64,000 nt of DNA from a virus (lineage: Duplodnaviria > Caudoviricetes). A model generated the notes under the pieces. It was not told where the DNA came from, searched no databases, and saw nothing but the letters and a program-made list of their open reading frames with translations. Shown piece by piece: positions 7,701 to 41,000 of the stretch (its first letter is position 1; every line of letters starts with the position of its first letter). Location: IMG/VR virus record IMGVR_UViG_3300028802_000012, positions 2,244 to 66,243 of that record; one strand, given 5' to 3'. Made by a program: the position numbers and the translations under genes.

Positions 7701-10700
7701 GCAGAAGGTCAACGGTCTGCCGGCCTATAAAGACGTACATTTTGGGAACGTGATCACCGAGGTCGGTGGAGAGGCTGAGCAGGCGTTGGCTCGTATTCCG
7801 TCCGAGACCACGATGTTGGAGCCGCCGCCCAGGGCCGGTGAAGAAATCGCCAGTTCCGTGGCCGCTGCCGAGAACCGGATCCCTGAGGATCTCGAACAGG
7901 GCTATCTCCCTGGCATGCGGCCCAGAACGCGTCGTCCCAGTGCTGCGCAGCAGGCCGAAGCAACGGTCGATCAGATGCGGGAAGAAGTGCGAGGGCGCTA
8001 TCAGGACGAACGGCGACGGTTTACCGAGAAAGAGATCTGGGCGCTGGCCGCGAAGTTGCGTCGAACGACACCGGAAAAGCTTCAGGAGATTCTCGAAGGC
8101 GCGCAAAACATGCGCGGCGACGAAGCTGCGACGGCTGGGTCGGCTCTTCGACAGGAGGGCGCAGCCCTGGGTGAGGAGACGCGGCTGGTCACTGAGGACT
8201 GGATGCGGGCCACACAGGATCTGAATGATGAGCTTCGACGGCGGGGCATTGACCCGGCAGATCTGCCCGCCCGTCGTGATGCCCTGGCGGGCAAAGATCC
8301 TATTCTCAACGATCTCGCCGATGAAGTCGAAGCGTCAGTGCTGGCCCAAGCAGAGTCGATGGATCGGTTTGAAGCCTGGCAGCGGGGCGACTTGAAGCGA
8401 GGATCGTCTGCCGCGCTCGAACTGCGGATGCGGCAGAAGCCGGTCTCTGCGCGCCGCGCGTATCGGCAGCTGAAGGCGAATCGCTCCTTCTATGAGGACA
8501 TGCAGAATACGGCGAACGAGCTTCTGGCCAAGGGCGACCAGATGTCTGAGGCTGACTGGGAGAAGCTGACGTCGCTCCAAGAGCGGATGGGTCAGAAGGT
8601 CGGTTCGGGCGAGCTACTCGACGAAGTGAGTGGGCGCCGGATTCGTGACATCGAGCGCGAAGGCATTGCGAACGTTCAAGCCGGAAAGAAGCGAGCAGGT
8701 CGCGCACCGAAAGAAGCGCCACCTGAAACGCTGGCGGAACGCTACGGTCGGCTGGCTCGGCGCTTTGACGAATACAACGCCGAGGGCGACACTGACGCCG
8801 CACAAGCGATTCGGTCGATGATGGGCGACACTGTCGACGAGATGAAACTGCAGGCTGATGAGCGAGCGATCAAGATCCTCGATCAGGAACTCCCCGACGC
8901 CAAGACGCCCGAAGAAGGCATGAAGATCATCCAGAAAGCTGTCGGGGATAAGGTCGCCCAGAAGCTCAACAAGGCCGCGCTTGCGGCCGAGGATGTTCGT
9001 GAAGGCCCTGGCGGCGTCGACCTGTCGATGAAGCAGTGGCGCGATCTTCAGAAGCTGCAGCGGGCGTTCCAGAACCGCATCGATCGAGCGTTCAAGGCCG
9101 AGTCGAACGAACAGGTCAGGATCGCCCTGCGCGCCCAGATGTCCAGGGCGCGAGACATGATGAGTCGAGCGATCGATGATCCGACGTTTGCTCCAGCTTT
9201 GCAGGAGTTTCGGGATCGCGTGGCCGAGCTTCGGCAGCAGCCCGGTGTCGGTAAGACGACGGGCGAACGACTGGCCAAAATTCTTGAAGATCAGTTCACG
9301 GATCGAACAGCCGAGAAAGCCTTTACGCAGAGCGCTCAGGACGAGGTTGGTCTGCTGCAGGCCAGGATTCGGGGTATTCGACAGCAGCTGGACGAGGCCA
9401 TCAAAAACAAGGACGCACCGGGAGCCCAGGCGCGGGTCAAAGAACTTCTCCAGGACATGCAGGATGTCGGCGGCGTTGGGAAAGTCGCGGCCGATCGTCA
9501 GCGTGAGCGGTTGATGCGCCAGAATCTTCACGATATTCCGGGTATTGATAAGTCTCAGCTGCGGGACGCGCTTGCGACGATCGACTTGCAGGACCCGAGT
9601 TCTATTCGGGCTGTGCTGGACGCCATGCAGAACCCGACGAAGTGGGATCTGTTTCGTGAGCGACTGTATCAAGCGCGCCTCTCCAACCCCTGGACCTGGC
9701 TGACGAACTTCAGTTCCAATGTGCTGACGGCGGGCGGGCATCTCGGTTTGCAGAACCCTCTTGAACGTCTGTACGGGGGCGAAGCAGCCGGTGGATCTCG
9801 TGCCGCCTGGGAAGAATTCAAAGCTGCACGAGGAGAAGCCGGACAGCGAGCCTGGGATGTCCTGAAGTCGGGTCGGTCGCAGCAGAACCTGGAACAACTC
9901 GCGTCGGGTGACATGGGGGGTCTGCGGCGGGAGTTCACGACCGAGCAGGGCGCTTCGGAGTGGTATCACCGATTGTCGACGCGGCCTCTTGAAGCCGGAG
10001 ACCAGTCGCTGGGCTATATGGTCTACCAGTCCGAGATCGGCAAGCTGGCTCAGCGTCAGGCCGACCGCCTCTTGAAGGCGGGCGATGCGCGCGTCCAGGG
10101 GATGACGCCGCTTGAAGCGCGCAAGTCGATCATGACGGATATCTGGGACCACCCGGAGATTATCGAAGAAGCGCGTAAGATCCGCGATCAGGTGCTGTTG
10201 CGCGAGCACGGGTCTCAGGGCTGGGAACGGGCGCTGCAGCATGTAGCAGCTTGGAGGGATCCAGGTCTGAAACCGGGTATGAAAGACTACGCCCGTGCTG
10301 CCGTGATGGATTTCGTGCTGCCGTTCTTCAACGTCCCGCTGAACTACGCGAGACAGGGCGTGCAGCGATCGCTTGGTGCGCCGTTTTATGCCTACTCTGG
10401 GGCGCAGAAGCTGCGGGCCGGAGATCGGGTCGGAGCAGCTCAGGACTTTGCAAAGGGGACGATCGGCGCAGCGGCGATGACCTCAGCGGCTGCGCTGTAT
10501 TACGGCGACGCGCTGACGGGGGCTGGCCCCGATGATCCTGGGGATCGCGCGATCTGGCTCCGAACGCATCAGCCCTTCTCCTGGAAAGATCCGCTCGGCA
10601 ATTGGCATTCCTATCAAGGCACACCGCTGGCGATTCCGTTCGCGATCGTCGCTGGGGCTGGGGAGGGCTGGGAGAAGCCGGGATCCACTCCGATTGTGGG

Positions 10701-11523
10701 CGGCGAGCCGATGTCGAAGCTCGCAGGCGGCGCGCTCGGGATCGTAACCGGAGCGGGTCGCGGCATCGCGTCGCAGTCGTTCTTGCAGGGCCTCTCGCAG
10801 GGGATGGAAGTCCTGACGAATCCCAACTTCTCAGCAGGGAACGCGGCTCAGCTCGGAGCCAATCTGGCCTTGACGTACGGCGGCGCGGCCGGGTTGAGCG
10901 CCGGAGTCCCAACTCTGACGGGTATGGCGGGCTTTCTGGCGTCGATCACCGATCGCATGGAACGCGACGCGGGTCGACCGTCGGGGAAAGATGCCGGCGA
11001 GTTCGTCCAGAACGTTGGGGCACGGGTGGCCTCACGGATTCCCGTCGCTCGTTGGAATCTCGATCCGCGCATCGGCGCATACGGTGAGCCCGTGGTCAAT
11101 CAGCGAAGTCTGCAAGCCGCGGGGCCTCTAGCGCTTGATCCGTACTGGCGCGGACCGGCACCAGGCGGAAACGAACGAATCAGTCAGGATCTCGGGGCTC
11201 TTGGCGTAGGTCGTCCTCCGGCACCGGATGCTCTCACGATTCAGGGGTATGACGTTCCACTGACGATTCATGAACAACGTGAATTCGATACGGTCTATGG
11301 GCAAACGTACCGTGAGATCCTCGATGAACTCGAAAAATCTCGCGTCGAGACGACGGAGAAGACGGGTCAACGCCCGGTCTATAGTGCCGATCTGTATCTC
11401 CGCTTGCGAGAGGCGGCAAGAAAAGCAGCGCGGGGGCAGATTCTGGCGACGATTCCGGCTGCTGATCTAGAAGCCCGATTGACGCGGAGTATTGATCAGA
11501 AGCTGGCGGCCCCGAGGAGATAG
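4798..11523 (+). CDS. Giant (2241 aa) internal virion/polyvalent protein with ADP-ribosyltransferase-like domain
   Basis: FYHGT...FGPGYYLTSDPRVAGSYA...GYDGM...IVF motif (ART-like domain of polyvalent proteins). Long helical middle. C-terminal LPFFNVPLN...GAGP...QPFSW region resembles phage ejected-protein C-termini. Confidence 0.7.
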   Translation: MPLPRLPDISLDSWIRDQQQQFERTISGLAEATEFKDAISDIESQVPADYPHPGGTDQWADAQRQQQEEEYRRQQDEDERRKAQQQADENQRQLDAYLNEKMRYEQEQQQQDALTQAQGQAQDLGIPSPDQAAASFQQIQPGDLPQPVQDFHSFADQIEQGQTPEGLQAPPPVKRGVPSPYSLTPPEEPLQAPPPLEEAPPPRRGVPSPYTLSPPPEPERPYWTPTAREAEGMGPAVGPDWLPEPIRQAAGVVKKGLVDAVHAAPQEDISLPTGRQVHVPGFAQQAVGSFSAAMEPVQAVDDYTAARLDPETWYFARDGIARTELDPGEFDRWNELQGSRRLAQGTKTTWTPEETAEIQHTSEKIDRIYQSIKDDPDKLNDYAKASPAYEITRGITHTVLGGALGNVVGGAAGSAARGLGAGHRAIKAAEYAGDIAAQTAFDPTTPAIQPLGDLALRGVGAGIRGTRSLAGRAGEALVRSADDVPEGVQRLGSGVSPEESRRFYHGTAGEFGRPDPGKFDEDGLFGPGYYLTSDPRVAGSYAETRGGRIPVDNPYTTWSKEAIQAGIDRAYKELEDPSLDFGTSRDIMDDLDLLEAARDDLVLPSPRSGPNVRAIDVPKNLNLLDLDKPVTADQAQRVIDATRKAGFPDSADELQAHIDMKREAIRRESTYRQPTSDPNIAYDTGQELHEELAYRLNEDYQTVVDTDLYSDKPGANRLLRDAGYDGMVHTGGKRVPLQDADGKPIEHDVTIVFPESLDKIRNAFSGEAGGSGVIPNLRRPLFNAAQGAFLGASSEELQAREEGRDADPARRLRSAGIGAGLAMLAGSRGARRVAGRALQAVGSGVVPEGAAQAARKVPVEFKTAKGSSYELLPDGTTIRNKAARSDPGHEGDFGIKPQSDATYFLTSENYPKLGLPEGPSRIVDHGDGTLSVATQNANGRWGIAPSSRNVPYETEPAVGLHPLEVWGPQKVNGLPAYKDVHFGNVITEVGGEAEQALARIPSETTMLEPPPRAGEEIASSVAAAENRIPEDLEQGYLPGMRPRTRRPSAAQQAEATVDQMREEVRGRYQDERRRFTEKEIWALAAKLRRTTPEKLQEILEGAQNMRGDEAATAGSALRQEGAALGEETRLVTEDWMRATQDLNDELRRRGIDPADLPARRDALAGKDPILNDLADEVEASVLAQAESMDRFEAWQRGDLKRGSSAALELRMRQKPVSARRAYRQLKANRSFYEDMQNTANELLAKGDQMSEADWEKLTSLQERMGQKVGSGELLDEVSGRRIRDIEREGIANVQAGKKRAGRAPKEAPPETLAERYGRLARRFDEYNAEGDTDAAQAIRSMMGDTVDEMKLQADERAIKILDQELPDAKTPEEGMKIIQKAVGDKVAQKLNKAALAAEDVREGPGGVDLSMKQWRDLQKLQRAFQNRIDRAFKAESNEQVRIALRAQMSRARDMMSRAIDDPTFAPALQEFRDRVAELRQQPGVGKTTGERLAKILEDQFTDRTAEKAFTQSAQDEVGLLQARIRGIRQQLDEAIKNKDAPGAQARVKELLQDMQDVGGVGKVAADRQRERLMRQNLHDIPGIDKSQLRDALATIDLQDPSSIRAVLDAMQNPTKWDLFRERLYQARLSNPWTWLTNFSSNVLTAGGHLGLQNPLERLYGGEAAGGSRAAWEEFKAARGEAGQRAWDVLKSGRSQQNLEQLASGDMGGLRREFTTEQGASEWYHRLSTRPLEAGDQSLGYMVYQSEIGKLAQRQADRLLKAGDARVQGMTPLEARKSIMTDIWDHPEIIEEARKIRDQVLLREHGSQGWERALQHVAAWRDPGLKPGMKDYARAAVMDFVLPFFNVPLNYARQGVQRSLGAPFYAYSGAQKLRAGDRVGAAQDFAKGTIGAAAMTSAAALYYGDALTGAGPDDPGDRAIWLRTHQPFSWKDPLGNWHSYQGTPLAIPFAIVAGAGEGWEKPGSTPIVGGEPMSKLAGGALGIVTGAGRGIASQSFLQGLSQGMEVLTNPNFSAGNAAQLGANLALTYGGAAGLSAGVPTLTGMAGFLASITDRMERDAGRPSGKDAGEFVQNVGARVASRIPVARWNLDPRIGAYGEPVVNQRSLQAAGPLALDPYWRGPAPGGNERISQDLGALGVGRPPAPDALTIQGYDVPLTIHEQREFDTVYGQTYREILDELEKSRVETTEKTGQRPVYSADLYLRLREAARKAARGQILATIPAADLEARLTRSIDQKLAAPRR

Positions 11524-13929: not shown

Positions 13930-14946
13930 ATGAGCTATACCCAGGTCGTCACCCGAGGGACGGGTCCTACCTACTCGTCCACCCCGGGGACCCATCCGCT
14001 GATCCCCGAACAGGTCAGCCAGACGATCATCAAGGCCTCGATTCAGAAGTCGGCCGTCCGTCAGCTGCTGAAGACCCGGACTATGAGCACGGCCCAGCAG
14101 CGCATGCCGGTGCTGGCCACGAAGCCGCAGGCGTATTTCGTCACCGGCGACACCGGCCTCAAGCAGACGACCTCGATGTCCTGGACGAACAAGTTCCTGG
14201 ATGCCGAAGAGCTGGCGGTGATCGTTCCGATCCCCGAGAAGCTCCTGGACGACGTCGGGTACGACCTCTGGGGCGAGATCAAGCCGGAGTTGGAAGAAGC
14301 GCTGGGCATCGCTCTCGATGCGGCGGTCCTGTTCGGCTACAACAAGCCGGCGTCATGGCCTGCCAGCATCGTTGCGGCGGCCATCGCGGCCGGGAATACC
14401 GTCACCCAGACGGTCCAGACGACCACCCACGACGTGGCGGACGACATCAACAACGTGATGGCGGCGGTCGAACTGGACGGCTACGACGTCAACGGGTTCT
14501 TCATTCGGAACTCGATGAAGGCCGAGCTACGCGGCCTGCGCGACAACCAGCACGGGTTCATTTTCAACCCGCCGGCAGATTCGGGTCTGACCAACACGGT
14601 CTACAAGGGCACGATCTACGGCGAGAAGGCCGTCTCGTCGATGTCCGGCATCTTCGAAGATGAAGACCTCGGGACCTACGGTCGCGCGGCCAACTCGGTC
14701 AAGCTGATCGCTGGCGATTGGTCGCAGGGCATCCTGGGGATTCGGCAGGACCTGACCTGGAAGATGCTCGACCAGTCGGTGATCACCGACGGGGATGGCA
14801 ACATCATCTGGAACCTGCCCCAGCAGGATATGGTGGCGCTCCGGGTCGTACAGCGCGTCGCGTTCCAAGTACCGAACCCCCTCAACCGCCTGAACATGGT
14901 AGAAGGAACCCGGTACCCGTTTTCTGTATTGAGAGACATAGCGTAG
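13930..14946 (+). CDS. Major capsid protein (HK97 fold)
   Basis: LIPEQVSQTII...AYFVTG...ELAVIVPIPEKLLDD...ALDAAVLFG...GDWSQ...QQDMVALRV, typical of phage MCPs; strongly biased codon usage. Confidence 0.9.
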   Translation: MSYTQVVTRGTGPTYSSTPGTHPLIPEQVSQTIIKASIQKSAVRQLLKTRTMSTAQQRMPVLATKPQAYFVTGDTGLKQTTSMSWTNKFLDAEELAVIVPIPEKLLDDVGYDLWGEIKPELEEALGIALDAAVLFGYNKPASWPASIVAAAIAAGNTVTQTVQTTTHDVADDINNVMAAVELDGYDVNGFFIRNSMKAELRGLRDNQHGFIFNPPADSGLTNTVYKGTIYGEKAVSSMSGIFEDEDLGTYGRAANSVKLIAGDWSQGILGIRQDLTWKMLDQSVITDGDGNIIWNLPQQDMVALRVVQRVAFQVPNPLNRLNMVEGTRYPFSVLRDIA

Positions 14947-25974: not shown

Positions 25975-26274
25975 ATGCCCTTCGAGAAGAAGCTCACCCC
26001 GGCTCAGTGGAAAGAGCGGTTGATCACGGAAAACACCCCGATCACGCTCGAAGAGTATCACGCCGGAGCGATCATCCGTTTGATGGGCCAGATGATCGAA
26101 GCCACCCAGGCCCTGAGTCATCTGGAAGGCATGCTCGGGGCCATCGACGAGGCCTTCTCACGCCACGACGCGAACTATGCTGGCAGCTCAAAGATTCGGG
26201 AGGCCCTGCATCAGCAGCGGCTGGCCCTGACAACGGCCCTGCGCACGAATGGCCAGGTCCATGACCCGACTTGA
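25975..26274 (+). CDS. Hypothetical protein
   Basis: AGGAGG RBS; 99 aa. Confidence 0.55.
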   Translation: MPFEKKLTPAQWKERLITENTPITLEEYHAGAIIRLMGQMIEATQALSHLEGMLGAIDEAFSRHDANYAGSSKIREALHQQRLALTTALRTNGQVHDPT

Positions 26275-26617
26275 GGGTCACGATCTCTGGGAGTACCACC
26301 GGCTGCAGCTGCAGCTCGAAGAGCGGCAGCTCCTGTATCGCAGCGCAGCTCGCATGCTGGAACGCTTCGGGCAGAGCATGAAGACCAAGTATCTCTTCAG
26401 CGACGAGGAACTGATCGATCCGAACGGCGAGATCATCTCGAAGCAGACCTGGCAGGCGCAGCACGCGCAGACCGAACAGCCGGATCAAACCCCGCTTCAG
26501 CCTGCGTCGCCCCCTGATAATGGGACCCCAGATCCGCATGGCCATACAGCCGCTGGGCCGGCTTTTCCATTCGGACAAAATACACCTGGCAGATCGGCTG
26601 ACCCGGCCGCAGAATAA
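26261..26617 (+). CDS. Hypothetical protein
   Basis: Overlaps the previous stop; 3' part overlaps the convergent dcd gene. Confidence 0.45.
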   Translation: MTRLEGHDLWEYHRLQLQLEERQLLYRSAARMLERFGQSMKTKYLFSDEELIDPNGEIISKQTWQAQHAQTEQPDQTPLQPASPPDNGTPDPHGHTAAGPAFPFGQNTPGRSADPAAE

Positions 26618-27068
26618 TCGTTGCCGGACCAGCGTTGAAGACTTCCAGGGTCAGCGCGCCTGACCAGCCTGGATCGGCCAACCCTGCTGCTTCGACGTGC
26701 AGGCCGTCGCGGGCGAGCGTGCTCTTCCCACACAGGATCGCCACCAGCCGTGGATCGTGCAGGGTGATCGACTCCGCCGTGGCGCAGAGCACGAATTCGC
26801 GAGGACCCAGCACGAGCATCTCATCATGCGCATAGGTGCGATACGTAACGTCCGGTCCCGTCGGTTCAGGACCGTAGCGATCGATACGCGTCGGGAGGAG
26901 CGCCCCCATCGTTGGACCCAGATGGAGGTCGATCGTACAGGGCTGAATACGCGCTGATGGTGGGACGCGTAGACCACCCGGGGATCGCCAATCGGCGAGA
27001 TCTGGTTCTATCTGGATACGCTCCTCCCAGATCGCCTCGATGATCTCGTCATCGCTCAAGATGCTCAC
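26433..27068 (-). CDS. dcd: dCTP deaminase
   Basis: ILSDDEI...IQPCTIDLHLG...GKSTLARDGL...AGLADPGWSGALTLEV...ICQV...YQG; likely GTG start at 27068. Confidence 0.9.
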   Translation of the reverse strand: MSILSDDEIIEAIWEERIQIEPDLADWRSPGGLRVPPSARIQPCTIDLHLGPTMGALLPTRIDRYGPEPTGPDVTYRTYAHDEMLVLGPREFVLCATAESITLHDPRLVAILCGKSTLARDGLHVEAAGLADPGWSGALTLEVFNAGPATIILRPGQPICQVYFVRMEKPAQRLYGHADLGSHYQGATQAEAGFDPAVRSARAAPARSASR

Positions 27069-27355
27069 AGCGCTTTCTCCCACCGTTCGCTGTCTCGGAG
27101 AAAAAAGGTGTACATCTCGACGACGTGGTCGCGTGGTTCCTTCCAGGTTTGGTCAGGCAGCATCTGGTACCAGGCCCAGCCATTGACGAGCTTGAACCGC
27201 AGAAATTCTTTGCGGTCAAACATCATCCCGAACGCCTCGTCTTCGGTTCCAAGCTGCGCCAGCAGCTGGTCAGAGACGTCGATCTCTGGGAGCCACTCCG
27301 GGTCTACAAGCACTGTAAATCCTTGCGTATCGGTCCTGAACGACAGGCCCGGCAT
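27065..27355 (-). CDS. Hypothetical protein
   Basis: AGGAGG RBS before ATG 27355; stop overlaps the dcd start. Confidence 0.6.
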   Translation of the reverse strand: MPGLSFRTDTQGFTVLVDPEWLPEIDVSDQLLAQLGTEDEAFGMMFDRKEFLRFKLVNGWAWYQMLPDQTWKEPRDHVVEMYTFFLRDSERWEKAL

Positions 27356-27372
27356 AGCTTCTCCTCCTGCTT

Positions 27373-27774
27373 TTAGGTGGGGGTGATAATCTCGATCAGA
27401 GGTCGAGGACCCCGACACGTCTGACGGGTGCAGAGTCCGACAGCCGCGATCATCCAGTGCTGGCCCAGCATGCCATGCACCCGGGTCTCGAAGCCGACCT
27501 GGCCGTCTTCGTAGTATTCGACGTTGGGCTCCGCCCGCTCAGCTAGCGCTTTCAAGGACCGGAAGGCCCCTAGCTGACTGTCGTAGCGGGTGTCCCAGTC
27601 CGTGCTGATCGTGCCGCTTTTCGGATGACAATACACGAGATGGTAATGCTCCGGGAGCAGCGGCTGGGGGGCGATGACCTCTGACCGCTGCAGCTCCCGC
27701 AGCCTGCGGCGGCGCTTCAAGGCTTGACGGCCCGCCGCTTTGATATCGGCACCGGTCAGAAGATCATCGCTCAT
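27373..27774 (-). CDS. Hypothetical protein immediately downstream of the array
   Basis: AAGGGGAG RBS; 133 aa. Confidence 0.6.
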   Translation of the reverse strand: MSDDLLTGADIKAAGRQALKRRRRLRELQRSEVIAPQPLLPEHYHLVYCHPKSGTISTDWDTRYDSQLGAFRSLKALAERAEPNVEYYEDGQVGFETRVHGMLGQHWMIAAVGLCTRQTCRGPRPLIEIITPT

Positions 27775-27785
27775 GACTCCCCCTT

Positions 27786-29092
27786 GGGGCGCTCCTGATG
27801 GATGGGATGGTCGTATCTCATGGCTCGCTCACGGGGCTTGGGGTATTCAAGAAGCTGGGCTCGCTCCGATCCTTGGGTGCTCGCAGGTAGAAGGGCTCGC
27901 TCACGGTGATTGGTGCTACTCCTCATGCCCGGCTCGCTCGACTGGCTTGGTGCGCACATCCATTAGGGCTCGCTCCGCTTGTCTGGAACACTCCCTACAT
28001 CATGGCTCGCTCCAACAGCAGGGTGCTCTTCGGATCGATGGCGCGCTCTTCGTATATGGGGCTGTCGCAGCGTGTGGCTCGCTCACTATTCCTGGGATGT
28101 TCGGGAGTTATGGCTCGCTCATCGAGATGGGGTGCTCTGCTGACATGGCTCGCTCTTCTGCCAGGGAACACACAGTCTTCGGGGCTCGCTCCCCTTCCAC
28201 GGTACGCTCGTCGGATACGGCTCGCTCTCAAGACATGGTGCTCATGCGCGAACTGGCTCGCTCCATACATTTGGGACGTTCGAGCGGTGTGGCTCACACT
28301 ACGAGACTGGTTCACTCCTCCAGCGTGGTTCGCTCGCGCTATCTGGACCGCTCAGCAGGCTGGGCTCGCTCCACCGCTATGGGTCTCACTGACATGGGGC
28401 TCGCTCTGCCTGATAGGTGCTCTCAGGGCGGAGGGCTCACTCCATTGGCAGGGCACCCTCTCACTGGTTGGATCGCTCAGGTGCTTTGGGCCGGCTCACA
28501 TGGATTGACTCGATCAGCTACTTTGGTCCACCTCGCCAGGGTTGACTCACTCAATCGTTCGGGTGCTCTCCCATCTTTGGGCTCGCTCCAATGGCTTGGT
28601 GCTCTTCTGCTGAGGGGCTCGTTCAGGGACTGGGGTGCTCTCCTCCAGTGTGACTCGCTCTCAAACTGTGGTGTTCTCGAACTGTGTGACTCGCTGCAAA
28701 GGTATGGTGCTCTCCCTGGATAGGGCTCGCTCTGCCATTTTGGAACGCTCTCTTACTAGGGCTCGCTCCCTCTTCTGGGGGACTCCGAACTCACGGCTCG
28801 CTCGCCTTACCTGGTACTCCCGGTATCGTGTGGCTCGCTCAGAGAATTTGGATCACTCCAGAACGCTGGCTCGCTTCGCGAAGGTGGTGCTCTTCCGCTG
28901 TAGGGCTCGCTCCGGATCGACGGTGCTCTCGTGCATGATGGCTCGCTCGCTCTCTGTGGAACGCACTTGAATGGTGGCTCGCTCTCGGACCAGGGTTCAC
29001 GCTTGGATCAAGGCTCGCTCCGATTCTTTGGTGCTCTCATGAACTATGGCTCGCTCTCGGACCAGGGTTCACTCGGAGGCTTTGGCTAGGAA
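27786..29092 (-). ncRNA. TIGR-like tandem guide array (~36 units of 36 bp)
   Basis: + strand unit = GGCTCGCTC-N9-GGTGCTCTC(variable)-N9. Period 36 (a few 35/37). Edge repeats at 27786, 27822, 27858 ... 29012, 29048, 29084. Both variable segments differ between units. Abuts the Nop/IS110-like gene. Confidence 0.88.
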
Positions 29093-29949
29093 ACCGGCTC
29101 GATACACGCATGATTGGGTATTCCTCGCAAATGTGTATGATGGAGATGCGCGATCGGGTACGGGAATGGCGGGAGTTTCCCGTAGTGCTGCTCGTACATC
29201 ACATGGTGCAAATCGGCCAGGAACTGCTTCACCGCAAATCGCTCGGCGCGCGCCTGAATGTGCGCCGGAGGCAGCTTACCGATCGAGTACGCTTTATAGG
29301 CGTCGGTGTCTTTGCCGATTCGCTTGCGTTCCAGGATGCCCGCCGCCTGGTCGGCCAGCTCACCACCCTCATTGCGGGTCTGCTCGTACAGTTTTCGGGT
29401 CTGGTACAGCTTGCCGTAGGTATCTCTGGGGTTGTTGCTGACCTTCACGAACGACTGCCCGAGTTTCCAGCAGAGCACTTTCAGCCGCGCGTTCCAGGGG
29501 CGCTTCTGGCCCTTGTCCCAGACGGCGGTCGGGTTCAACCCCGCGAAACTCCAGATGTGTCCCACCGTCGGGGCGCGTTCGATGTCGATGTGGGCCAGGA
29601 ATCCAGCAGCGAGGACCGGCCCGATGCCGACGATCGAGCGAGCCCATTGCCCGACCCCCGTCGGCTCGTTCTTCGAGTAGACATCGAGGCCTTTACGGAT
29701 TTCGTCCTCGATGCGCACGAACGCTGCACTGGTCCATTCCAACAGCGACGTCGGCTCGATGCCGTCTTCGAGGGCGCGAACCTGGTTCGACGCCGTAATC
29801 CGATACCCTTGCACGGTGTAATAGGTGTCCACCAGAAACCGAATTTCCGCGACCGAGAGGGTCGCGGCTGCCTGTCGAAGATCCTTCTTCGCACGTTCGA
29901 GCGGCTCCAACGCGGTGCCGTTGATGGGCGGATCTTGCACGTCGACCAT
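29086..29949 (-). CDS. tasA: TasA-like Nop/IS110-related RNA-binding protein without nuclease domain
   Basis: Coiled coil plus SIVGIGPVLAAGFLAHI...IWSFAGLNP...WNARLK (IS110 C-terminal/Nop-like). Only 287 aa, with no DEDD RuvC or HNH motif. Sits directly upstream of the dual-repeat array. Confidence 0.8.
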   Translation of the reverse strand: MVDVQDPPINGTALEPLERAKKDLRQAAATLSVAEIRFLVDTYYTVQGYRITASNQVRALEDGIEPTSLLEWTSAAFVRIEDEIRKGLDVYSKNEPTGVGQWARSIVGIGPVLAAGFLAHIDIERAPTVGHIWSFAGLNPTAVWDKGQKRPWNARLKVLCWKLGQSFVKVSNNPRDTYGKLYQTRKLYEQTRNEGGELADQAAGILERKRIGKDTDAYKAYSIGKLPPAHIQARAERFAVKQFLADLHHVMYEQHYGKLPPFPYPIAHLHHTHLRGIPNHACIEPVS

Positions 29950-29970
29950 GATGGTCTCTCCTTTGGGTGC

Positions 29971-29984
29971 GTGTACTTTTACAC
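29971..29984. promoter_or_regulatory. Operator-like palindrome GTGTA-N4-TACAC upstream of tasA
   Basis: GTGTACTTTTACAC; its exact reverse complement is at 36373-36386. Confidence 0.6.
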
Positions 29985-30229
29985 TATTCCTGCGGGCCTG
30001 ACAAGGCGCAGGGTTGCCGCGTCGTGCGTCCCTTCAGGGGTGGAAGATCGAGAGGCTGCTCGTCGTCGATGACGATCAGCAGATTCCCGGTGATCAGACG
30101 GCTGATCGAGACCAGAGTTCCCGGGGTGAACCCTGCTCGCCAGGCTGCCTCCCCCAACGGCAGGCAGCCATCGCTGCGCACGGCGCTCTTGTAGGTCATG
30201 GTTCCGCTAATCCTGCATATGTTCGTCAC
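29984..30229 (-). CDS. Small AbrB/SpoVT-like protein
   Basis: DGCLPLGEAAWRAGFTPGTLVSISRLITGNLLIV fits the swapped-hairpin AbrB pattern. Confidence 0.5.
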   Translation of the reverse strand: MTNICRISGTMTYKSAVRSDGCLPLGEAAWRAGFTPGTLVSISRLITGNLLIVIDDEQPLDLPPLKGRTTRQPCALSGPQE

Positions 30230-30543
30230 TCGGGCGCGTGTGTCACTCGGGGGTCTATCCGTGAGAGCGCGGACAACCTCGCCAGAGCCTGACGCAGTTG
30301 CTCTCGGAGTCCCTCGACCTCGGCGCGTGCCATGTCGCGCTCAGCCCGCATCTGCCGGGCTTCCTCGACGAGTCGGTACGCCTCCGCCGACGTCTTTAGC
30401 GCCCGCTCAGCCGAGGGTTCAATGCCGGCGGCCGTCAGGCGTTCGATCTCGGCCTCCAGCCGCTCAACCTCTGATGCCCTCTCGTCGCGCCCATCCTGAT
30501 ACGTGGCGAATCGGTATCCGTGCGGCATATTCCCTGTCGTCAT
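30226..30543 (-). CDS. Coiled-coil hypothetical protein
   Basis: GGAGG RBS; heptad repeats. Confidence 0.6.
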   Translation of the reverse strand: MTTGNMPHGYRFATYQDGRDERASEVERLEAEIERLTAAGIEPSAERALKTSAEAYRLVEEARQMRAERDMARAEVEGLREQLRQALARLSALSRIDPRVTHAPE

Positions 30544-30588
30544 ACGCCTCCTCCACTCGGGTAGTGCCGAAACTAAGGCTGAATATCT

Positions 30589-32712
30589 TCACCAGGTCAG
30601 GGCGACGCGGCTATCGATCTTGATCGGGGCCGTCGGACCCAGCACGTCCTGCATACCCCGGTGCAGACAGCCCTTGGCGACCTCGGCCAGGTCGCGCGCG
30701 TCTTCTTCGGGAAACTCCAGCAGGATCTCATCGTGGATCTGGCCACACAAGAACGGCAGTAAGCCAGCCTCCATGAGACCAGGGAAGCTGTTCTTCAATC
30801 CGTACCCGGCAGTACTCTGGATCCAGGAGTTCAACCAGGACGTCGGCTTCCGGTTGTGACCTTCCAGAATTCTCCGAAACCCGACCTGGTTGACGACGTC
30901 AATCCGGGGTTCGGACTGCTCCATCGTCCGATAGGCTTGCTGGCGTTTGATGGCCATGCCGAGATAGGTCCGAAAATATTTTCGGATGGTCTCAGCCGCC
31001 TGCTCCATCGAGATCTCGACGTCGAACAGGTCACGGGCCTGCTTGACGTAGCCGTTGACGCCACCCCCGAACAGCAGGCCGAAGTTGGCGATCTTGGCGT
31101 CCTGTCGCTGGCTGCTGGTGACCTCCTCCTGCGGGATGTTGAGCAGCGCGGCAGCCACAGCCGCGTGGGGATCACCAGTCCGACAGGCTTCGAGCAGCGC
31201 CGTGTCGTTGGCGAAGACGGCCGCTGTGACGACTTCGATGCTGGAATAGTCCAGCGACGCTAAGCGCATCCCTTCTTCGGCCACAAACATCCGTCGAAAC
31301 TCTGGCGCCCGGGGGATCTGCTGAAGATTGGGGTACGCACACGAGTACCGGGACGTCTCCGTCCCAATCTGCCGCCAGGACGGATGAAACCGGCGACAGA
31401 CAGTGCAGACGTGCAGGTCCAGAAACCGCCCTTTCTTGGCGTACCCCCAGTTCTCGATGCGTTTCTGCGACAACCGAAAGTCCAACAGTTGTTGGACCGG
31501 CCGATACCCGGCCCGTGCCAGAGATTTCAGCGTCGCCTTTCTGGTGTCCGCCAGTGGAAAGCCCAGGACGTCGTTCGACGTAGCCTTGAGTTGCACCGGC
31601 GACCGAAAGTTCTTGACCCCTGGCCAGGATCGAATCAGGTGCCAGAGCATGTGGTCCCGATCCTGCTCCCAGGTGGGGATGGACGCTTCCCAGAGAGCGA
31701 CGTCGGGCTTGAGCCCGTTGTAGGTCATCCAGGCCGTGGCTGGGACGGCCCGTTGCTCGATCCAGTTGGCCCGCTCCTGCCCTTGCGCCATAAGGAGACC
31801 ATCCTGGCGGTCTGCGAGCCGTTCAAGATGGACGATATCCTCCAGCATGTACGCCACCATGTCTTGCGTCCACGGACCCGTCCAATCTGTTGTTTCATGA
31901 TCGATCTCCTTGGCGATCGCGACCCCGAGCCGTTCTGCCAGCACCGATTGCAGATCGTTCGGCTTCCAGGACGTGGGTCGACCAGCCTTTGCGGCTCCGG
32001 TTCTGGTACGATACTCATGCAGGAGCAAGGACTGGATCAGCGTGTCGGTCGTGTTCCGGATGTACGCCATGTCGTCGCCCTGGTAGTGACTGAGCATCCA
32101 TGCCAGGTCGAACGACAGGTTGTGGCCGATGACGCGGGTCTCGTCGTCGGCCAGGATCTCACGCCACCAGGCGGGCAGCGTCCTCAGGATGAAGGTGTCT
32201 TGCCCGACCGCGAAGATCGCTGCGCCAATAGCAGCGCTTTCCGACGCGTGGAAAGCGAGCCCGGTTGTTTCAAGGTCGACGGCGACGGTGCCGTGTCGGG
32301 CGATGGCTGTTCGGAGGGCGCGTTCGTCGTCGTTGTAGCGGAGCGTGCGGCGCGTGCGGCTTCGGCGCGCTGTACCGCCGACGTGAGCGTTTCCTCCAGA
32401 CGCTTGATCGGTTTGGAGTTCGCCGGTGTGAGCAGGATCGCTGGCGGCTTCTCCTTCGGAGGCGGCACGCTCGGCGTCGAGGGCGTCGCCAGAACTTCCT
32501 CCCGGCTCTTGGCGTACAGGACGAGTGGCGGAAGGGTCAGCCCGGCTGGGCTGTTCGGCAACGGTAACCCGGCCCAGAAGCTCGGCTCGTATCGCCAGGA
32601 TTTTATCAGCATCTGATAGAGGTTCTGGGTGGCCCACTTCTTGGGACCCGTCCACTCCAGCGTCTGAAAGGCTGGCCCGGTTGCGTCGAGCCCGACCTTT
32701 CCCTGTTGGCAT
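30589..32712 (-). CDS. Family A DNA polymerase with 3'-5' exonuclease
   Basis: VAVDLETTGL, GHNLSFD, NLQQIPR, LDYSSIEV, RQDAKIANFGLLFG, QIHDEIL; GGAGG RBS before ATG 32712. Confidence 0.95.
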   Translation of the reverse strand: MPTGKGRARRNRASLSDAGVDGSQEVGHPEPLSDADKILAIRAELLGRVTVAEQPSRADPSATRPVRQEPGGSSGDALDAERAASEGEAASDPAHTGELQTDQASGGNAHVGGTARRSRTRRTLRYNDDERALRTAIARHGTVAVDLETTGLAFHASESAAIGAAIFAVGQDTFILRTLPAWWREILADDETRVIGHNLSFDLAWMLSHYQGDDMAYIRNTTDTLIQSLLLHEYRTRTGAAKAGRPTSWKPNDLQSVLAERLGVAIAKEIDHETTDWTGPWTQDMVAYMLEDIVHLERLADRQDGLLMAQGQERANWIEQRAVPATAWMTYNGLKPDVALWEASIPTWEQDRDHMLWHLIRSWPGVKNFRSPVQLKATSNDVLGFPLADTRKATLKSLARAGYRPVQQLLDFRLSQKRIENWGYAKKGRFLDLHVCTVCRRFHPSWRQIGTETSRYSCAYPNLQQIPRAPEFRRMFVAEEGMRLASLDYSSIEVVTAAVFANDTALLEACRTGDPHAAVAAALLNIPQEEVTSSQRQDAKIANFGLLFGGGVNGYVKQARDLFDVEISMEQAAETIRKYFRTYLGMAIKRQQAYRTMEQSEPRIDVVNQVGFRRILEGHNRKPTSWLNSWIQSTAGYGLKNSFPGLMEAGLLPFLCGQIHDEILLEFPEEDARDLAEVAKGCLHRGMQDVLGPTAPIKIDSRVALTW

Positions 32713-33029: not shown

Positions 33030-35021
33030 CTAGTCATCACCTCGTGTCTGGTCGTCGGTGTCGTCCCCGAGCAGATCGCCAACCCTGTTCGCGGCCAACG
33101 TCAGGGCCGAGTCGTAGCCGGGACCTGCGCGGAAACGGTAGAGCTTGCCACCAGCGGCTTTGCTCTCATCCAGGACGACCAGCGTGCCCTCCGTCTCCAT
33201 GTCGTTCAAGCGTTCCTTCAGCAGGGCTTCACTGGGCGGGTCGGTCGGCCCCGACCAGGACATCGGCAGCACGTTGACCAGCTGCTTGACCCGCATACCC
33301 GCACTCCTGGGGTTCATGGCTGACATCGCGATCATGCTGGTTGTCAGCCAGGCAATAAGCTTTTTGGGATCATTCTTGGCCACCGACGCGACCCGTGACT
33401 GCGCGTCACTGATCTTGCCGGTGAACTTCATCGACACGTACGCTCCAGCGTGGGTGTCGAACTCACTCAAGAAGCCAGGGAGTTCCAGGCTGGTGCGGGC
33501 TTTGGCGTGGATCACCGACAGCTGTCGGGTATCCGTGGCCCGCTCCTCCTGGTCGTACTCGGCCAGGATCAGGGCAGCGTCCGCTTGCTGCATGATCTGC
33601 CCCGACCCCCGAATCGAAAACTGCACGTGATCTTTCTTGCGGGTCCCTGAGGGTTTCAAAAGATGGTGGATCAACCCCCAGGCTACGCCGGTTCGTTCCG
33701 TGATGCCCCGCAAGTAGGCGTAAAACCTCCCGACTTCGGACGAGCTGTTCTCGTCTCCGGTCCAGCACATCGAGAAACTGTCCAGGATCACCAGCCGCAC
33801 ACCCAGATCCAGAATTGCCGTCTCGATGCGGCGGCGCTGCATCTCTTCGGTAAAATCAATCACCGACTCGTCGGCAAAGTGAATCCGTTCCCGGATCACC
33901 GTCTCGTAGTCGCTGTGCTTGGCGTACCGTTCGTTCCGGGCGATGGCTCGCAGCCGTTGGCCCAGCATCTTGGAGCCCATCTCCTTGTTGACATACAGGG
34001 TGGAGAAGGCGTCCGGATGTTTGAGATCAGGGTGGTCCAACCAGGGGATTCCGAGCGCGCCGTCCAGACACAGCTGCAAGCCATGCCAGGTCTTATAGGA
34101 CCCGGAATGCCCACCGATCACCAGGATCCCCTCTTCAGGGAGCAGCGGATTGATCAGGTGCGGGACGTCACGCACGGCTTCTTCGATCAAGGTAAAGGCG
34201 GTCTTGACGATGAGGGGTGGGGCCTCATCGAGGGCGGCGTCCGCCAGTGCGAACGTCGGAGTGGTCGCCGCTCCCAGGAGATCCGCAAGCGTCCCACCCC
34301 CAGCCAGGTAATCGTCAGCCCCCTGTCGTTCCAGCCCGGCGTACGGTACGACCGCGACGTAGACGTGACGCGCACCCGTCTTCGCTGAAGCGTACTGCGC
34401 GAGATCTGACCACCCTGCACGGACTGCGTCGTTCGTACGAAAGTCGGAATCTGGCGTCGTATACACCCGACGACGCTTGAGCGGAAGATCCAGGAAATCG
34501 TAGCTCGCCACACTGGACCCGGATTCGGTCTTGCAGCGCCAGCCGTAGTTCCCATTGAGGGCGACCACGACACAGGGGATGCCCTCCCGTCGGGCAGCGC
34601 TGAGTATTGCATCGCCTTTCTTGACTCCTTCCGCGAAGATCAACGGGACCTGTTCGTCGTACAGGTCAGCAAAGAATCCCGGATGGACCATCAGCGCGTT
34701 CCGCGTCCCCGTCGGCCAGACGTACTTCGTCGGGAAGCTCCCACCGAAGACGCGCATGACCTCACAATGCTTCTCACCGTCGGGTCGATGAACCGGGATA
34801 GCCAGCCAGGAGTCCGCCGTCAGGATCCGATCTTGCACCAGTCCAGCAGCCACCAGGGCTGCCATCTGGCGCGTGGTCGGTGAGTAGTAGCCGCGCCCCA
34901 CCACGATGTCGCCGTCGATACCGCTGTCGTCTTCGAGCACTTTCCGGTGGGCGTCAGAAAGCTGACGCTCTCGCAGGGGGACGGCCTGTTCCCACGCGTC
35001 GACAGGACCAGGCGTAGGCAT
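33030..35021 (-). CDS. Primase-helicase (Toprim/DUF3854-like + RecA/AAA_25 helicase)
   Basis: FAEGVKKG...PDSD...GADDYL; GHSGSYKT Walker A, VILDSF Walker B, HH..K, RGSG. Confidence 0.85.
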   Translation of the reverse strand: MPTPGPVDAWEQAVPLRERQLSDAHRKVLEDDSGIDGDIVVGRGYYSPTTRQMAALVAAGLVQDRILTADSWLAIPVHRPDGEKHCEVMRVFGGSFPTKYVWPTGTRNALMVHPGFFADLYDEQVPLIFAEGVKKGDAILSAARREGIPCVVVALNGNYGWRCKTESGSSVASYDFLDLPLKRRRVYTTPDSDFRTNDAVRAGWSDLAQYASAKTGARHVYVAVVPYAGLERQGADDYLAGGGTLADLLGAATTPTFALADAALDEAPPLIVKTAFTLIEEAVRDVPHLINPLLPEEGILVIGGHSGSYKTWHGLQLCLDGALGIPWLDHPDLKHPDAFSTLYVNKEMGSKMLGQRLRAIARNERYAKHSDYETVIRERIHFADESVIDFTEEMQRRRIETAILDLGVRLVILDSFSMCWTGDENSSSEVGRFYAYLRGITERTGVAWGLIHHLLKPSGTRKKDHVQFSIRGSGQIMQQADAALILAEYDQEERATDTRQLSVIHAKARTSLELPGFLSEFDTHAGAYVSMKFTGKISDAQSRVASVAKNDPKKLIAWLTTSMIAMSAMNPRSAGMRVKQLVNVLPMSWSGPTDPPSEALLKERLNDMETEGTLVVLDESKAAGGKLYRFRAGPGYDSALTLAANRVGDLLGDDTDDQTRGDD

Positions 35022-39027: not shown

Positions 39028-40446
39028 TTATTTGAGCATCGCCAGGGCGTCGGACCGGGTGAGTTGCCTGCTCATACCCGCTTTGCCTACCAATTTCTGG
39101 CGGACGTATTCGTCGACTGTGTTGCGCACGACCAGGTGCTCGATCTCCAGGTGATCGGCGGTCGTGGTGAGACGGTTGTTCCGTTCTTGCGACTGCATGA
39201 GCGCGTCCAAATCCCAGGTCAGGCTGTGATAGATCATCCGGGTAGCCCGGGTGAGGTTCAATCCATAGGCTCCCTTCGCCAGCTGGCTGATGTAGACGTT
39301 GGCCTCGCCCCGCATGAAGCGATCACGCGAGCCATCTCCTGCCTTCTTGAACGTGATGAACGGGATGCCTTCCTTGGCTAAGCTCCCTTCGATAATGGCC
39401 AGCTCTGGCGTCCACCAGTACCAGAGCACGGTCGGTTTGTCGGGATCTTCCAGAAGCAGCTCGATCATCTCGTCGGTTTTCTGGGAGCCGAAGAGCCTGA
39501 TCTCACCCTCGACGTTTCGCGCAAAGCCGGAGGCTATTTCTAGGAGCCTGGTCAGCCTGACAGAGTAGGTACTGGCCTCGGCTTTGAACTCCGCTTCGGT
39601 CAGGCTCTGGATCCAGACCCGGAGTTCTTCCCGCATCTGGCTATAGACCTCGGTCTGGAGCCCGCTCTTGAGATTGACCCGGCGGACGGACAGCGTCCGC
39701 AGCGGCATGGTCCTGACGTCGGACAGCTCCGCGTGAATCGCATGCGCATCGATGATCCGCTTGAGCTGCTGGATTCGATCGGGACGAATCCCAATGGCTG
39801 CCGTGCCGGTGTAGCCTCCGAGCACACAGTATTCGGTCTTGAAGGTCTGGATGTTCCTGGTCCCGAAGAGCCCCGGGACCAGGAAGTTCATGATGTACCA
39901 GACATCGGCGGGATTTCGGGGCATGATGTTGCCCGAGAAGACGTACCGGGACTTCGACCGCTGGCCGATGACCTGCAGGGTTCGCGTGCGCTGCGAGTAG
40001 TTCCTGAACCTGGACCCCTCGTCGATGAACGTCGCTGCCCACTGCCGCTTGCGCAACCCTTCGCGAATCTTCGGATACGACAGGCTCTCCGTCGAGAGCA
40101 GGTAGACCGTTTCGTGTTTGGTGATACCTCCACCCGTATTGGAGAGGTACTCTGCTCGCTTCTGGATACTGGTGGATCCGTCCATCACCAACACGTGCTT
40201 GAGGCGCCAGGCTCTCCCGAGCCACTGCTCGTACTCTTCGACCGTCTGTTCGATCAGGGAGTTCGGCACGACGTGCAGGATCGGCACGTCGCCAGCTCCG
40301 ACCAGGATGTCGATGGCTTCTATAGCTACCCGAGTCTTTCCTAACCCGGTGCCATGCCGCACCAGCAGGGCCTCGCGTTCGATGATCACGTCGATGGCCT
40401 GCCACTGGTGCGGCATAACATCCGGTATGGTGGGTGTGACAGTCAT
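39028..40446 (-). CDS. SNF2-like superfamily 2 helicase
   Basis: HQ...GTGLGKT, FIDEGS, SGNIMPRN, GAYGLNLT, QSQERNNR; AGGAGG RBS before ATG 40446. Confidence 0.9.
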   Translation of the reverse strand: MTVTPTIPDVMPHQWQAIDVIIEREALLVRHGTGLGKTRVAIEAIDILVGAGDVPILHVVPNSLIEQTVEEYEQWLGRAWRLKHVLVMDGSTSIQKRAEYLSNTGGGITKHETVYLLSTESLSYPKIREGLRKRQWAATFIDEGSRFRNYSQRTRTLQVIGQRSKSRYVFSGNIMPRNPADVWYIMNFLVPGLFGTRNIQTFKTEYCVLGGYTGTAAIGIRPDRIQQLKRIIDAHAIHAELSDVRTMPLRTLSVRRVNLKSGLQTEVYSQMREELRVWIQSLTEAEFKAEASTYSVRLTRLLEIASGFARNVEGEIRLFGSQKTDEMIELLLEDPDKPTVLWYWWTPELAIIEGSLAKEGIPFITFKKAGDGSRDRFMRGEANVYISQLAKGAYGLNLTRATRMIYHSLTWDLDALMQSQERNNRLTTTADHLEIEHLVVRNTVDEYVRQKLVGKAGMSRQLTRSDALAMLK

Positions 40447-41000
40447 GTCTCCTCCTTTCGTAGCGGCCAGGAGAGTCCGAAGTCTCGGCGCTTGATCTTC
40501 ACCATCCTTCCATCTTCGTGGTGCCAGACGATGCCTTCGATGGCGTTCGCTTCGAGGTAGGCGTGAATGCTGTCGAAACTTCTCGACGGCAGCGTCAGAA
40601 ACGCTCGGCCGTGAGGGACTAAGACGTGCGTCGTGAAGCCGTGTGGATTGCCCTGCACTTTTGGACCGCATAACTCGTACGTGCCATTCGTCTCATCGTG
40701 AAACGCCTCACGATGCCAGCGATCTTCGGGTCCACCGCCTACTGGCACCCATCCCTGTACCCGGCCAGTCACCGGGTCTGGTTCTCCGCTTTGCTCAAAT
40801 CCAAGAGGAGGTCGACGCCCGGGCTTGGCGTCGTAGCGCCTGTACAGCACCCCCTCTCGGACCATGCATGACGTACCGTCGTACTTGACCGTCGCTACGC
40901 CCTGACCTTCGAGCACCCACTCAGCACCGGGTACTATCTCGTCTCGCACGAGCCTGTCCGTCTCGTAGTTCCTCTGGAACAGACTGATGATCTTTTCCAT
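40443..41000 (-). CDS. RNA-ligase-like nucleotidyltransferase (DUF5565/RLIG1-like)
   Basis: KYDGT motif I, ELCGPKVQGNP, EGIVW, KIK. Confidence 0.7.
   Translation of the reverse strand: MEKIISLFQRNYETDRLVRDEIVPGAEWVLEGQGVATVKYDGTSCMVREGVLYRRYDAKPGRRPPLGFEQSGEPDPVTGRVQGWVPVGGGPEDRWHREAFHDETNGTYELCGPKVQGNPHGFTTHVLVPHGRAFLTLPSRSFDSIHAYLEANAIEGIVWHHEDGRMVKIKRRDFGLSWPLRKEET

Follow-up and report, generated by a model that had tools for sequence, protein, structure and literature searches.

Does a small protein gene, followed at its own stop codon by a long run of very short alternating repeats, make up an RNA-guided system, and what would such a system do for the phage that carries it? The question is raised by a locus in the virus record IMGVR_UViG_3300028802_000012, 66,243 bp in length, of which positions 2244-66243 were analyzed (64,000 nt, hereafter the window). 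An earlier note on this DNA had described a 287-aa gene with a 36-bp-period array and had taken the pair for a nuclease-less member of the systems built on tandem interspaced guide RNAs (TIGR) and their TIGR-associated (Tas) proteins. The locus is very probably a dual-repeat TIGR-TasA system of a 66-kb tailed soil phage that would act by the steps set out below, and its most likely activity is that of an RNA-guided DNA binder or repressor. As the earlier note had said of the family, this kind of system is already described: it was published in 2025, structures and a repressor function of TasA were added in 2026 (PMC12045711; bioRxiv 10.64898/2026.09.09.750476), and the locus adds no new principle. 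The TIGR-Tas systems are compact RNA-guided DNA binders free of a protospacer-adjacent motif (PAM) and of current interest for genome engineering, for which the locus offers a bench-suited example, with a complete or near-complete 66-kb phage genome, an intact TasA with a putative processing dyad, 36 guides, and near-identical and variant copies in several soil metagenomes.

The protein encoded by tasA belongs to the TIGR-Tas family. The NCBIfam model NF052498.1 (TIGR-Tas) matches residues 36-251 with positions 1-214 of its 215 (E 4e-58; 196.9 bits against a cutoff of 100), whereas the IS110 model NF033542 failed, with 24.8 bits against a cutoff of 140 and only residues 77-141 covered. At E<=1, Pfam returned a partial Transposase_20 match (PF02371, residues 104-141) and a sub-threshold HNH_3 match (E 0.62) in the C-terminal region, and did not report the IS110 DEDD domain. 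The best sequence matches among PDB structures were TasR (9mty, E 1.2e-10) and TasH (21kl, E 3e-9), and PADLOC returned no match for the TasA protein. The GIGPVLAA and FAGLNP motifs read in the protein by the earlier note are present; no variation occurs at G108, G110 or P111 across the 50 relatives aligned, and the G108-P111 stretch aligns to the GIGP of TasR and the GVGP of TasH.

An AlphaFold2 model built on 50 homologues is confident (predicted local distance difference test, pLDDT, 90.4; predicted template-modeling score, pTM, 0.85) and consists of a helical hairpin (residues 33-60 and 68-94), a helical domain and a short C-terminal beta-hairpin, with the helical hairpin aligning to the coiled coil of TasH and TasR. 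TasH and TasR chains fill the top ten places among the Foldseek matches in the PDB (probability 1.0, E 1e-7 to 3e-6), followed by IS110-type recombinases at E 1e-2. The comparison with Tas, IS110 and Nop5 structures that the earlier note had called for gave the same order with VIA-align: TasH (Z 19.9; 226 residues aligned, model residues 30-283 on TasH 65-309), TasR (Z 18.2; 26% identity over 193 residues, model 34-281 on TasR 112-322), the IS110-family recombinases IS621 and ISCro4 (Z 12.8-13.2, with IS621 at 13.2) and Nop5 (Z 7.2 with 146 residues aligned, which is within the chance range for helical proteins). Both Tas alignments start past the nuclease part, HNH in TasH and RuvC in TasR, and only about 29 poorly ordered residues stand ahead of the coiled coil, such that the modeled architecture is that of a nuclease-free TasA. 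The absence of a DEDD and of an HNH domain and the nuclease-less TasA identity, both proposed in the earlier note, are upheld by the family models, by these folds and by the arrays found beside relatives (below). Its expectation of mis-annotation as a transposase holds for PHROG 4285, which is matched by the TasA protein and is named 'transposase', and for a relative from Halomonas sp. NO4 that bears the same name, but not for NCBI's current library, which contains the TIGR-Tas model passed here. The product name of that model, 'TIGR-Tas system RNA-guided endonuclease', falls here on a nuclease-free member, and both the older label 'transposase' and NCBI's current 'endonuclease' misdescribe a nuclease-free TasA.

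The array lies directly 3' of tasA and begins at the tasA stop codon on the minus strand, as the earlier note had described, and the estimate of about 36 guides made there proved exact: 36 units span 29092 to 27795, followed by a final half edge repeat (GAGCG) at 27794-27790, with unit lengths of 36 bp in 28 units, 37 bp in five and 35 bp in three. The formula of two alternating repeats held well for the edge repeat, which reads exactly GAGCGAGCC in 24 of the 35 full copies (units 2-36; one mismatch in seven copies and two in four), and far more loosely for the loop repeat, which reads exactly GAGAGCACC in only 6/36 and is conserved only at its ends. There are 25 copies of GAGCGAGCC in the window against 1.88 expected (standard deviation 1.35, largest 6; 0 of 100 dinucleotide-preserving shuffles reach 25), 24 of them in the array on the minus strand and one on the plus strand inside tasA (29636-29644). 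GAG opens the edge repeat in 30 of the 35 units and, for the most part, the loop repeat as well. Once registered to the next edge repeat, all 35 loop repeats end in CC, and the 72 half-units carry A (43), C (22), G (5) or T (2) as the base after CC. Both repeats have two box ends, D at the start and C at the end (65/72 half-units with A or C after CC, the preference pointed out in the earlier note), and the edge repeats are truncated at both ends of the array.

The eight remaining spacer positions carry 0.00-0.20 bits each with both spacers pooled, and the spacers are essentially unique, with two exact duplicate pairs among 2556, which agrees for the 8-nt cores with what the earlier note had said of its 9-mers. 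The length of 9 nt given there did not stand. The units in this clade consist of 10-nt repeats (G-A/T-G ... CCA) and 8-nt spacers, from which it follows that the 'base after CC' would be the third base of box C and that for the targets, put at 16-18 bp in the earlier note, a length of 16 bp is likelier than one of 18 bp. Half of each unit varies, which is why the array went unreported by Tandem Repeats Finder. Read on the strand of tasA, it holds 11-17 stops in each frame. Neither a terminator-like site nor a T-run terminator lies between the array and the next gene; a crude test found a terminator-like site after the array in 11 of 82 array-bearing loci (relatives and the window), and the lack of one is not distinguishing because most of the array-bearing loci examined share it.

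The pairing of gene and array extends across a very large family (3,885 proteins at E<=1e-3 among 5,250 candidates), nearly all of whose members are unnamed, 'hypothetical' or 'transposase'. The best non-self match is 80% identical and relatives of 70-80% identity exist; the loci fetched (31 viral, 80 metagenome and 33 genome-assembly) have best matches of 57-61% identity in the viral and metagenome sets, with the contigs of the 70-80% relatives lying outside these sets. A 36-bp periodicity stands beside the gene in 24/31 viral loci and an array of ~36 bp units, taken as at least four anchors at ~36-bp spacing, in 86 of 102 non-redundant viral and metagenome loci, several of the 16 array-less loci being short contigs. 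Arrays were also present in 17 of the 33 genome-assembly loci, and array length in relatives has a median of 14 units and a range of 4-102. Consensus units in relatives likewise combine 8-nt spacers with repeats of 10 nt, the commonest pair being GAGCGAGCCA and GA(G/C)AG.ACCA, and in two loci (L035 and L037) the consensus is exactly the repeat pair of the window (GAGCGAGCCA / GAGAGCACCA). The edge and loop repeat of a locus have their first 2 nt in common in 22 and their last 2 nt in 25 of 34 distinct pairs, and shared ends of this kind have been described by Faure et al. for binding to a symmetric dimer (PMC12045711).

The C-terminal part of TasA carries a conserved loop (family consensus PY.I.HLGH); among 50 relatives, all keep H271 and at least 90% keep Y264. 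According to the report on SpTasH (PMC13421893), that protein cuts its own precursor RNA via Y289 and H296 in a flexible C-terminal loop, and the Y-x6-H spacing of Y264/H271 equals that of the residues named there. Counted in residues from a FLAD motif shared by the two proteins, the Tyr and His come at +18 and +25 in TasA and at +17 and +24 in SpTasH. On these grounds we read Y264/H271 as a putative guide-processing dyad (Table 1).

Table 1. Features of the locus and its surroundings, in window coordinates.
Feature	Coordinates	Strand	Basis
tasA, 287 aa, ATG start; solo coiled-coil and Nop-domain protein without nuclease domain	29086-29949	-	Open reading frame (ORF), hidden Markov model, AlphaFold2 model
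Shine-Dalgarno-like AAAGGAGAG upstream of tasA ATG	29956-29964	-	Sequence
GIGP codons, G108-I109-G110-P111; motif common to IS110 and Nop RNA-binding domains	29617-29628	-	Alignment
Candidate Tyr/His dyad, Y264 to H271 codons	29137-29160	-	Conservation and spacing
Dual-repeat array, 36 units of ~36 bp	27790-29092	-	Parsed from sequence
Unit 1, 5'-truncated edge repeat (TAGCCA replacing GAGCCA) holding the tasA stop codon	29057-29092	-	Sequence
Unit 2, canonical: GAGCGAGCCA, 8-nt spacer, GAGAGCACCA, 8-nt spacer	29021-29056	-	Sequence
Units 12-23, central block	28264-28696	-	All four two-mismatch edge repeats and 5/7 one-mismatch ones
Last edge repeat, 3'-truncated (GAGCG)	27790-27794	-	CCCCAAGGGGGAG comes directly after, then the ATG of orf133
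Open frame of 327 codons on the strand opposite the array, taken for a repeat artefact	27740-28723	+	G+C at third codon positions (GC3) 0.58 vs 0.77 in tasA
orf133, next gene (133 aa, without family match); start 15 nt past array end	27373-27774	-	ORF list, PHROG
dCTP deaminase	26433-27083	-	PHROG
Family-A DNA polymerase	30589-32712	-	PHROG
Primase/helicase	33030-35021	-	PHROG
Helicase	39028-40671	-	PHROG
Major head protein	13930-14946	+	PHROG

In the mechanism that we propose, tasA and the array would be transcribed together, TasA dimers would bind both repeats, edge and loop, at their GAG...CC(A) ends (box D, box C), and the Y264/H271 loop would cut within the edge repeats to release about 36 guide RNAs (tigRNAs) of 36 nt. 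TasA, TasR and TasH have been reported to bind RNAs of 36 nt whose two ends lie in the middle of edge repeats, with one tigRNA per Tas dimer and spacers A and B pairing with opposite DNA strands without a PAM (PMC12045711). By analogy, spacer A of each phage tigRNA may pair with one DNA strand, leaving spacer B to pair with the neighboring stretch on the opposite strand, and the target, 16-18 bp long altogether, would read as spacer A and then the reverse complement of spacer B. Without a nuclease, the complex would stay on the DNA, blocking transcription or replication of host or rival-element genes. Two preprints report that TasA binds its target DNA and represses transcription in a reversible manner (bioRxiv 10.64898/2026.09.09.750476; 10.64898/2026.08.11.744272); in the first of them, target binding and repression are reported for MbTasA.

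Targets were built for each guide as spacer A plus the reverse complement of spacer B, an order that we infer ourselves because TasR cuts leave 8-nt 3' overhangs (PMC12045711), and the other order was also tried. This search, recommended in the earlier note, gave no match beyond controls. In the 66,243 bp of the phage outside the array, 18-mer targets had no match with two or fewer mismatches and one with three, and 16-mer targets reached at best 13/16 (A plus reverse complement of B) and 14/16 (other order), against 15/16 for mismatched A_i/B_j control pairs. The real pairs reached 14 and the controls 15 both in the 31 viral loci (246 kb) and in all 149 loci (807 kb). Single 8-mer spacers had 155 matches in the phage genome against 140 +/- 18 for shuffled ones, neither enriched nor depleted. 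In whole collections, 16-mer matches are expected many times by chance; natural TIGR-Tas targets are described as mostly not yet determinable (bioRxiv 10.64898/2026.09.09.750476, Discussion), and spacer acquisition is also considered an open question (PMC12045711; bioRxiv 10.64898/2026.09.09.750476).

Several observations weigh against a working silencer of this design. No guide target was found in the phage or in the 807 kb of fetched loci, and none of the 11 sequencing runs listed for this DNA is recorded as RNA. Dimerization of TasA is something we infer, and the Tyr/His match to SpTasH comes from spacing and motif, with MAFFT placing the residues one residue/column off and the BLASTP alignment stopping at FLAD. 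Further, the array is partly degenerate, with 30 of 36 loop repeats departing from the exact form, 29 of 72 third bases of box C other than A, 8 of 36 units of 35 or 37 bp, and the mutated edge repeats falling mostly in units 12-23, which means that some guides may be dead.

A part of this degeneracy is what would be expected if the system were a decaying, nonfunctional TIGR-TasA whose array is drifting and whose protein has been kept by chance, for which the loose loop repeats, CCC in place of CCA in 22 of 72 half-units, the 35/37-bp units and the central block of mutated edge repeats would all speak. We consider this very improbable. The tasA gene is intact and keeps all 47 family-invariant positions (by construction), the CC of box C is retained in 35/35 loop repeats and 24/35 edge repeats are exact, array pieces of 151-266 bp recur identically in three other soil studies, and the interior of the TasR loop is reported to be without sequence-specific contacts (PMC12045711). 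Less credible still, and of almost negligible probability, is that an IS110 transposase remnant happens to lie beside an unrelated satellite, that the repeats are a miniature CRISPR array, or that they encode a translated 12-aa repeat protein. The partial Transposase_20 match, the 'transposase' name of PHROG 4285 and the 327-codon open frame running antisense through the array lend themselves to one or another of these, but the IS110 model stays at 24.8 bits against a cutoff of 140 with no DEDD domain, the gene-array pair recurs in 86/102 loci, and the repeats are 9-10 nt long and of two alternating kinds. As for a repeat protein, the sense strand is closed by 11-17 stops per frame, and the antisense frame is not one because its GC3 is low (0.58 vs 0.77 for tasA) and the 35/37-bp units shift the repeats between frames.

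The alternative with the most to recommend it accepts a real TIGR-TasA and gives it a role other than silencing, either as a guided sharp DNA bend in phage replication, recombination, integration or partition, or as guide processing that regulates the operon transcript. The locus sits within a block of replication and nucleotide-metabolism genes (polymerase, primase/helicase, dCTP deaminase), no terminator separates the array from the next gene, and recombination-aid and ParB-linked TasA roles have been raised by Faure et al. (PMC12045711, Discussion). We nonetheless regard such a role as distinctly unlikely. On the phage's own genome, the true guides match no better than mispaired spacers and single spacers show neither excess nor deficit, the immediate neighbors are unconserved beside tasA in the 31 viral relatives, and DNA binding with repression is the only TasA activity demonstrated (bioRxiv 10.64898/2026.09.09.750476). 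RNA-guided DNA binding or repression is favored, and it can be carried further into an unlikely scenario in which the 36 guides would together silence, in multiplex, DNA of the host or of rival phages whose AT content exceeds that of the phage. Since the array lies inside a replication operon without a terminator, that transcript would also be severed when the Tyr/His dyad cuts the edge repeats, which would tie expression of orf133, orf117 and the dCTP deaminase to TasA levels. The content of the array, for its part, would change through the swapping of whole or half units, to which duplicated half-units and the variant arrays of other soils point.

Among known systems, the closest in design are the dual-repeat TIGR-TasA systems (FpTIGR of Flavonifractor plautii, PMC12045711; MbTasA, bioRxiv 10.64898/2026.09.09.750476), which likewise have a solo nuclease-less Nop protein, edge repeats truncated at both array ends, and both repeats bounded by box D and box C. 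The 36 units exceed the 5-15 most usual in PMC12045711, a length that is long but not extreme given the median and range in relatives, and the 8-nt spacers and 10-nt repeats differ from the 9-nt spacers of FpTIGR; spacers of dual-repeat TIGR arrays are typically 9 nt and up to 12 (PMC12045711). The best structural match, SpTIGR-TasH of Salicola phage CGphi29 (PDB 21kl, 9vzx, 9w02-9w04), is also phage-borne and has in common with the locus a total variable guide of 16 nt and the Y-x6-H loop (PMC13421893). TasH has an N-terminal HNH nuclease (residues 1 to ~64) and cuts DNA, whereas the window protein, with the coiled coil as its beginning, should bind DNA only. TaTasR (PDB 9mty; PMC12045711), the best PDB match by sequence, has the same coiled coil and Nop fold but differs in its N-terminal RuvC (residues 1 to ~111), its 9-nt spacers and its repeats beginning UG and ending CCA.

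Further afield, the IS110 bridge-RNA recombinases (IS621, 8wt6/8wt9; ISCro4, 9t56) share the RNA-binding coiled coil and Nop-like region and the GIGP motif, whereas the locus has no DEDD/RuvC-like domain and no transposon ends, and a tandem guide array replaces the single bridge RNA. Archaeal box C/D Nop5 (1nt2) has a distant Nop fold and box C/D RNA logic in common with TasA; in contrast to Nop5, no fibrillarin or L7Ae partner was seen in the phage, and the guides would act on DNA rather than rRNA. CRISPR-Cas was considered and rejected, with two alternating 9-10-nt repeats and 8-9-nt spacers in place of one repeat of ~25-36 nt, no PADLOC match and no cas-like family among the 32 window ORFs scanned with PHROGs.

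Contigs from three other soil studies contain pieces of the array, 151-266 bp in length, with zero differing letters; the matches of such soil and rhizosphere contigs fall within 27659-29107. One contig matches the units at 28760-28912 and then continues into different array units on both sides, and another has a possible 210-bp skip from 28803 to 29014 (with 25 letters only on one side); these low-depth contigs offer only a hint of unit-level turnover of the array between soils. Two spacer 8-mers each occur twice in the window array, against 0.06 expected from column shuffles, one as spacer B of units 1 and 3 (29057-29065 and 28985-28993, with the same loop variant and spacer-B position) and the other as spacer B of unit 5 (28913-28920) and spacer A of unit 30 (28031-28038), which hints at exchange or duplication of half-units. 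The spacer cores have a G+C content of 51% in a 62% G+C genome, and for relatives the spacers fall below the flanking DNA in G+C in 29 of 34 distinct repeat pairs (means 0.48 vs 0.55); low spacer G+C could reflect AT-rich targets, limits on duplex stability or mutational drift. An edge-repeat-like 9-mer with two mismatches lies in the last tasA codons (29096-29104, minus strand), 12 nt upstream of unit 1 and outside the 36-nt register.

The 32 ORFs scanned with PHROGs show a tailed-phage layout, with tail-fibre-like proteins encoded on the plus strand and tasA and the array within a minus-strand block of replication and nucleotide-metabolism genes. The next gene, orf133, is probably on the same transcript as tasA and the array. 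Searches of the 31 viral relatives with tblastn (E<=1e-3) found no match for orf81, orf105, orf133, orf117 or the dCTP deaminase and only weak matches for the polymerase, in three loci; as the immediate neighbors of tasA are unconserved in these relatives, the module consists of the gene and its array. The 34-nt gap between orf81 and tasA has an A+T content unusually high for this genome, and within 29965-29990 (minus strand) a small inverted repeat (TGTA-aaag-TACA) just upstream of the tasA ribosome-binding site could be a promoter or operator; a sigma-70 scan gave no hit on the minus strand. Rfam had no match in 27000-30600 (E<=1), and a tRNA gene search of the window found none.

DNA of this phage was found in soil and rhizosphere metagenome runs only. 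Cultured-phage relatives are distant (capsid at most 44.5% identical, polymerase at most 27%), and the sole cultured-phage relative of TasA found is Salicola phage CGphi29, the source of SpTasH, at 24.6% identity. The capsid was not found in a search of five TasA-bearing genomes; among 401 genomes of one phylum it matched in 1 (51% identity), and among 401 of another in 9 (48% at best), which revealed no host. Ten of the 33 genome-assembly loci bear the names Bryobacterales, Solibacteraceae, Pyrinomonadaceae, Acidobacteriaceae or Thermoanaerobaculia, all of which we take to belong to the Acidobacteriota; the loci otherwise span many phyla and one archaeon and give no host signal for this phage.

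Elsewhere in the window, the sole minus-strand terminator-like site is at 26053-26036. At the point where the gene blocks converge, a 122-aa ORF (26249-26617, plus strand) and the 3' end of the dCTP deaminase gene have 185 nt in common, and because of this overlap one of the two calls is probably spurious. A 1,387-aa ORF (169-4332, plus strand) has no PHROG match, and a 2,241-aa ORF (4798-11523, plus strand) contains an endolysin-like segment at residues 849-1016 (PHROG) and may be a tail-associated lysin or tape-measure-like protein.

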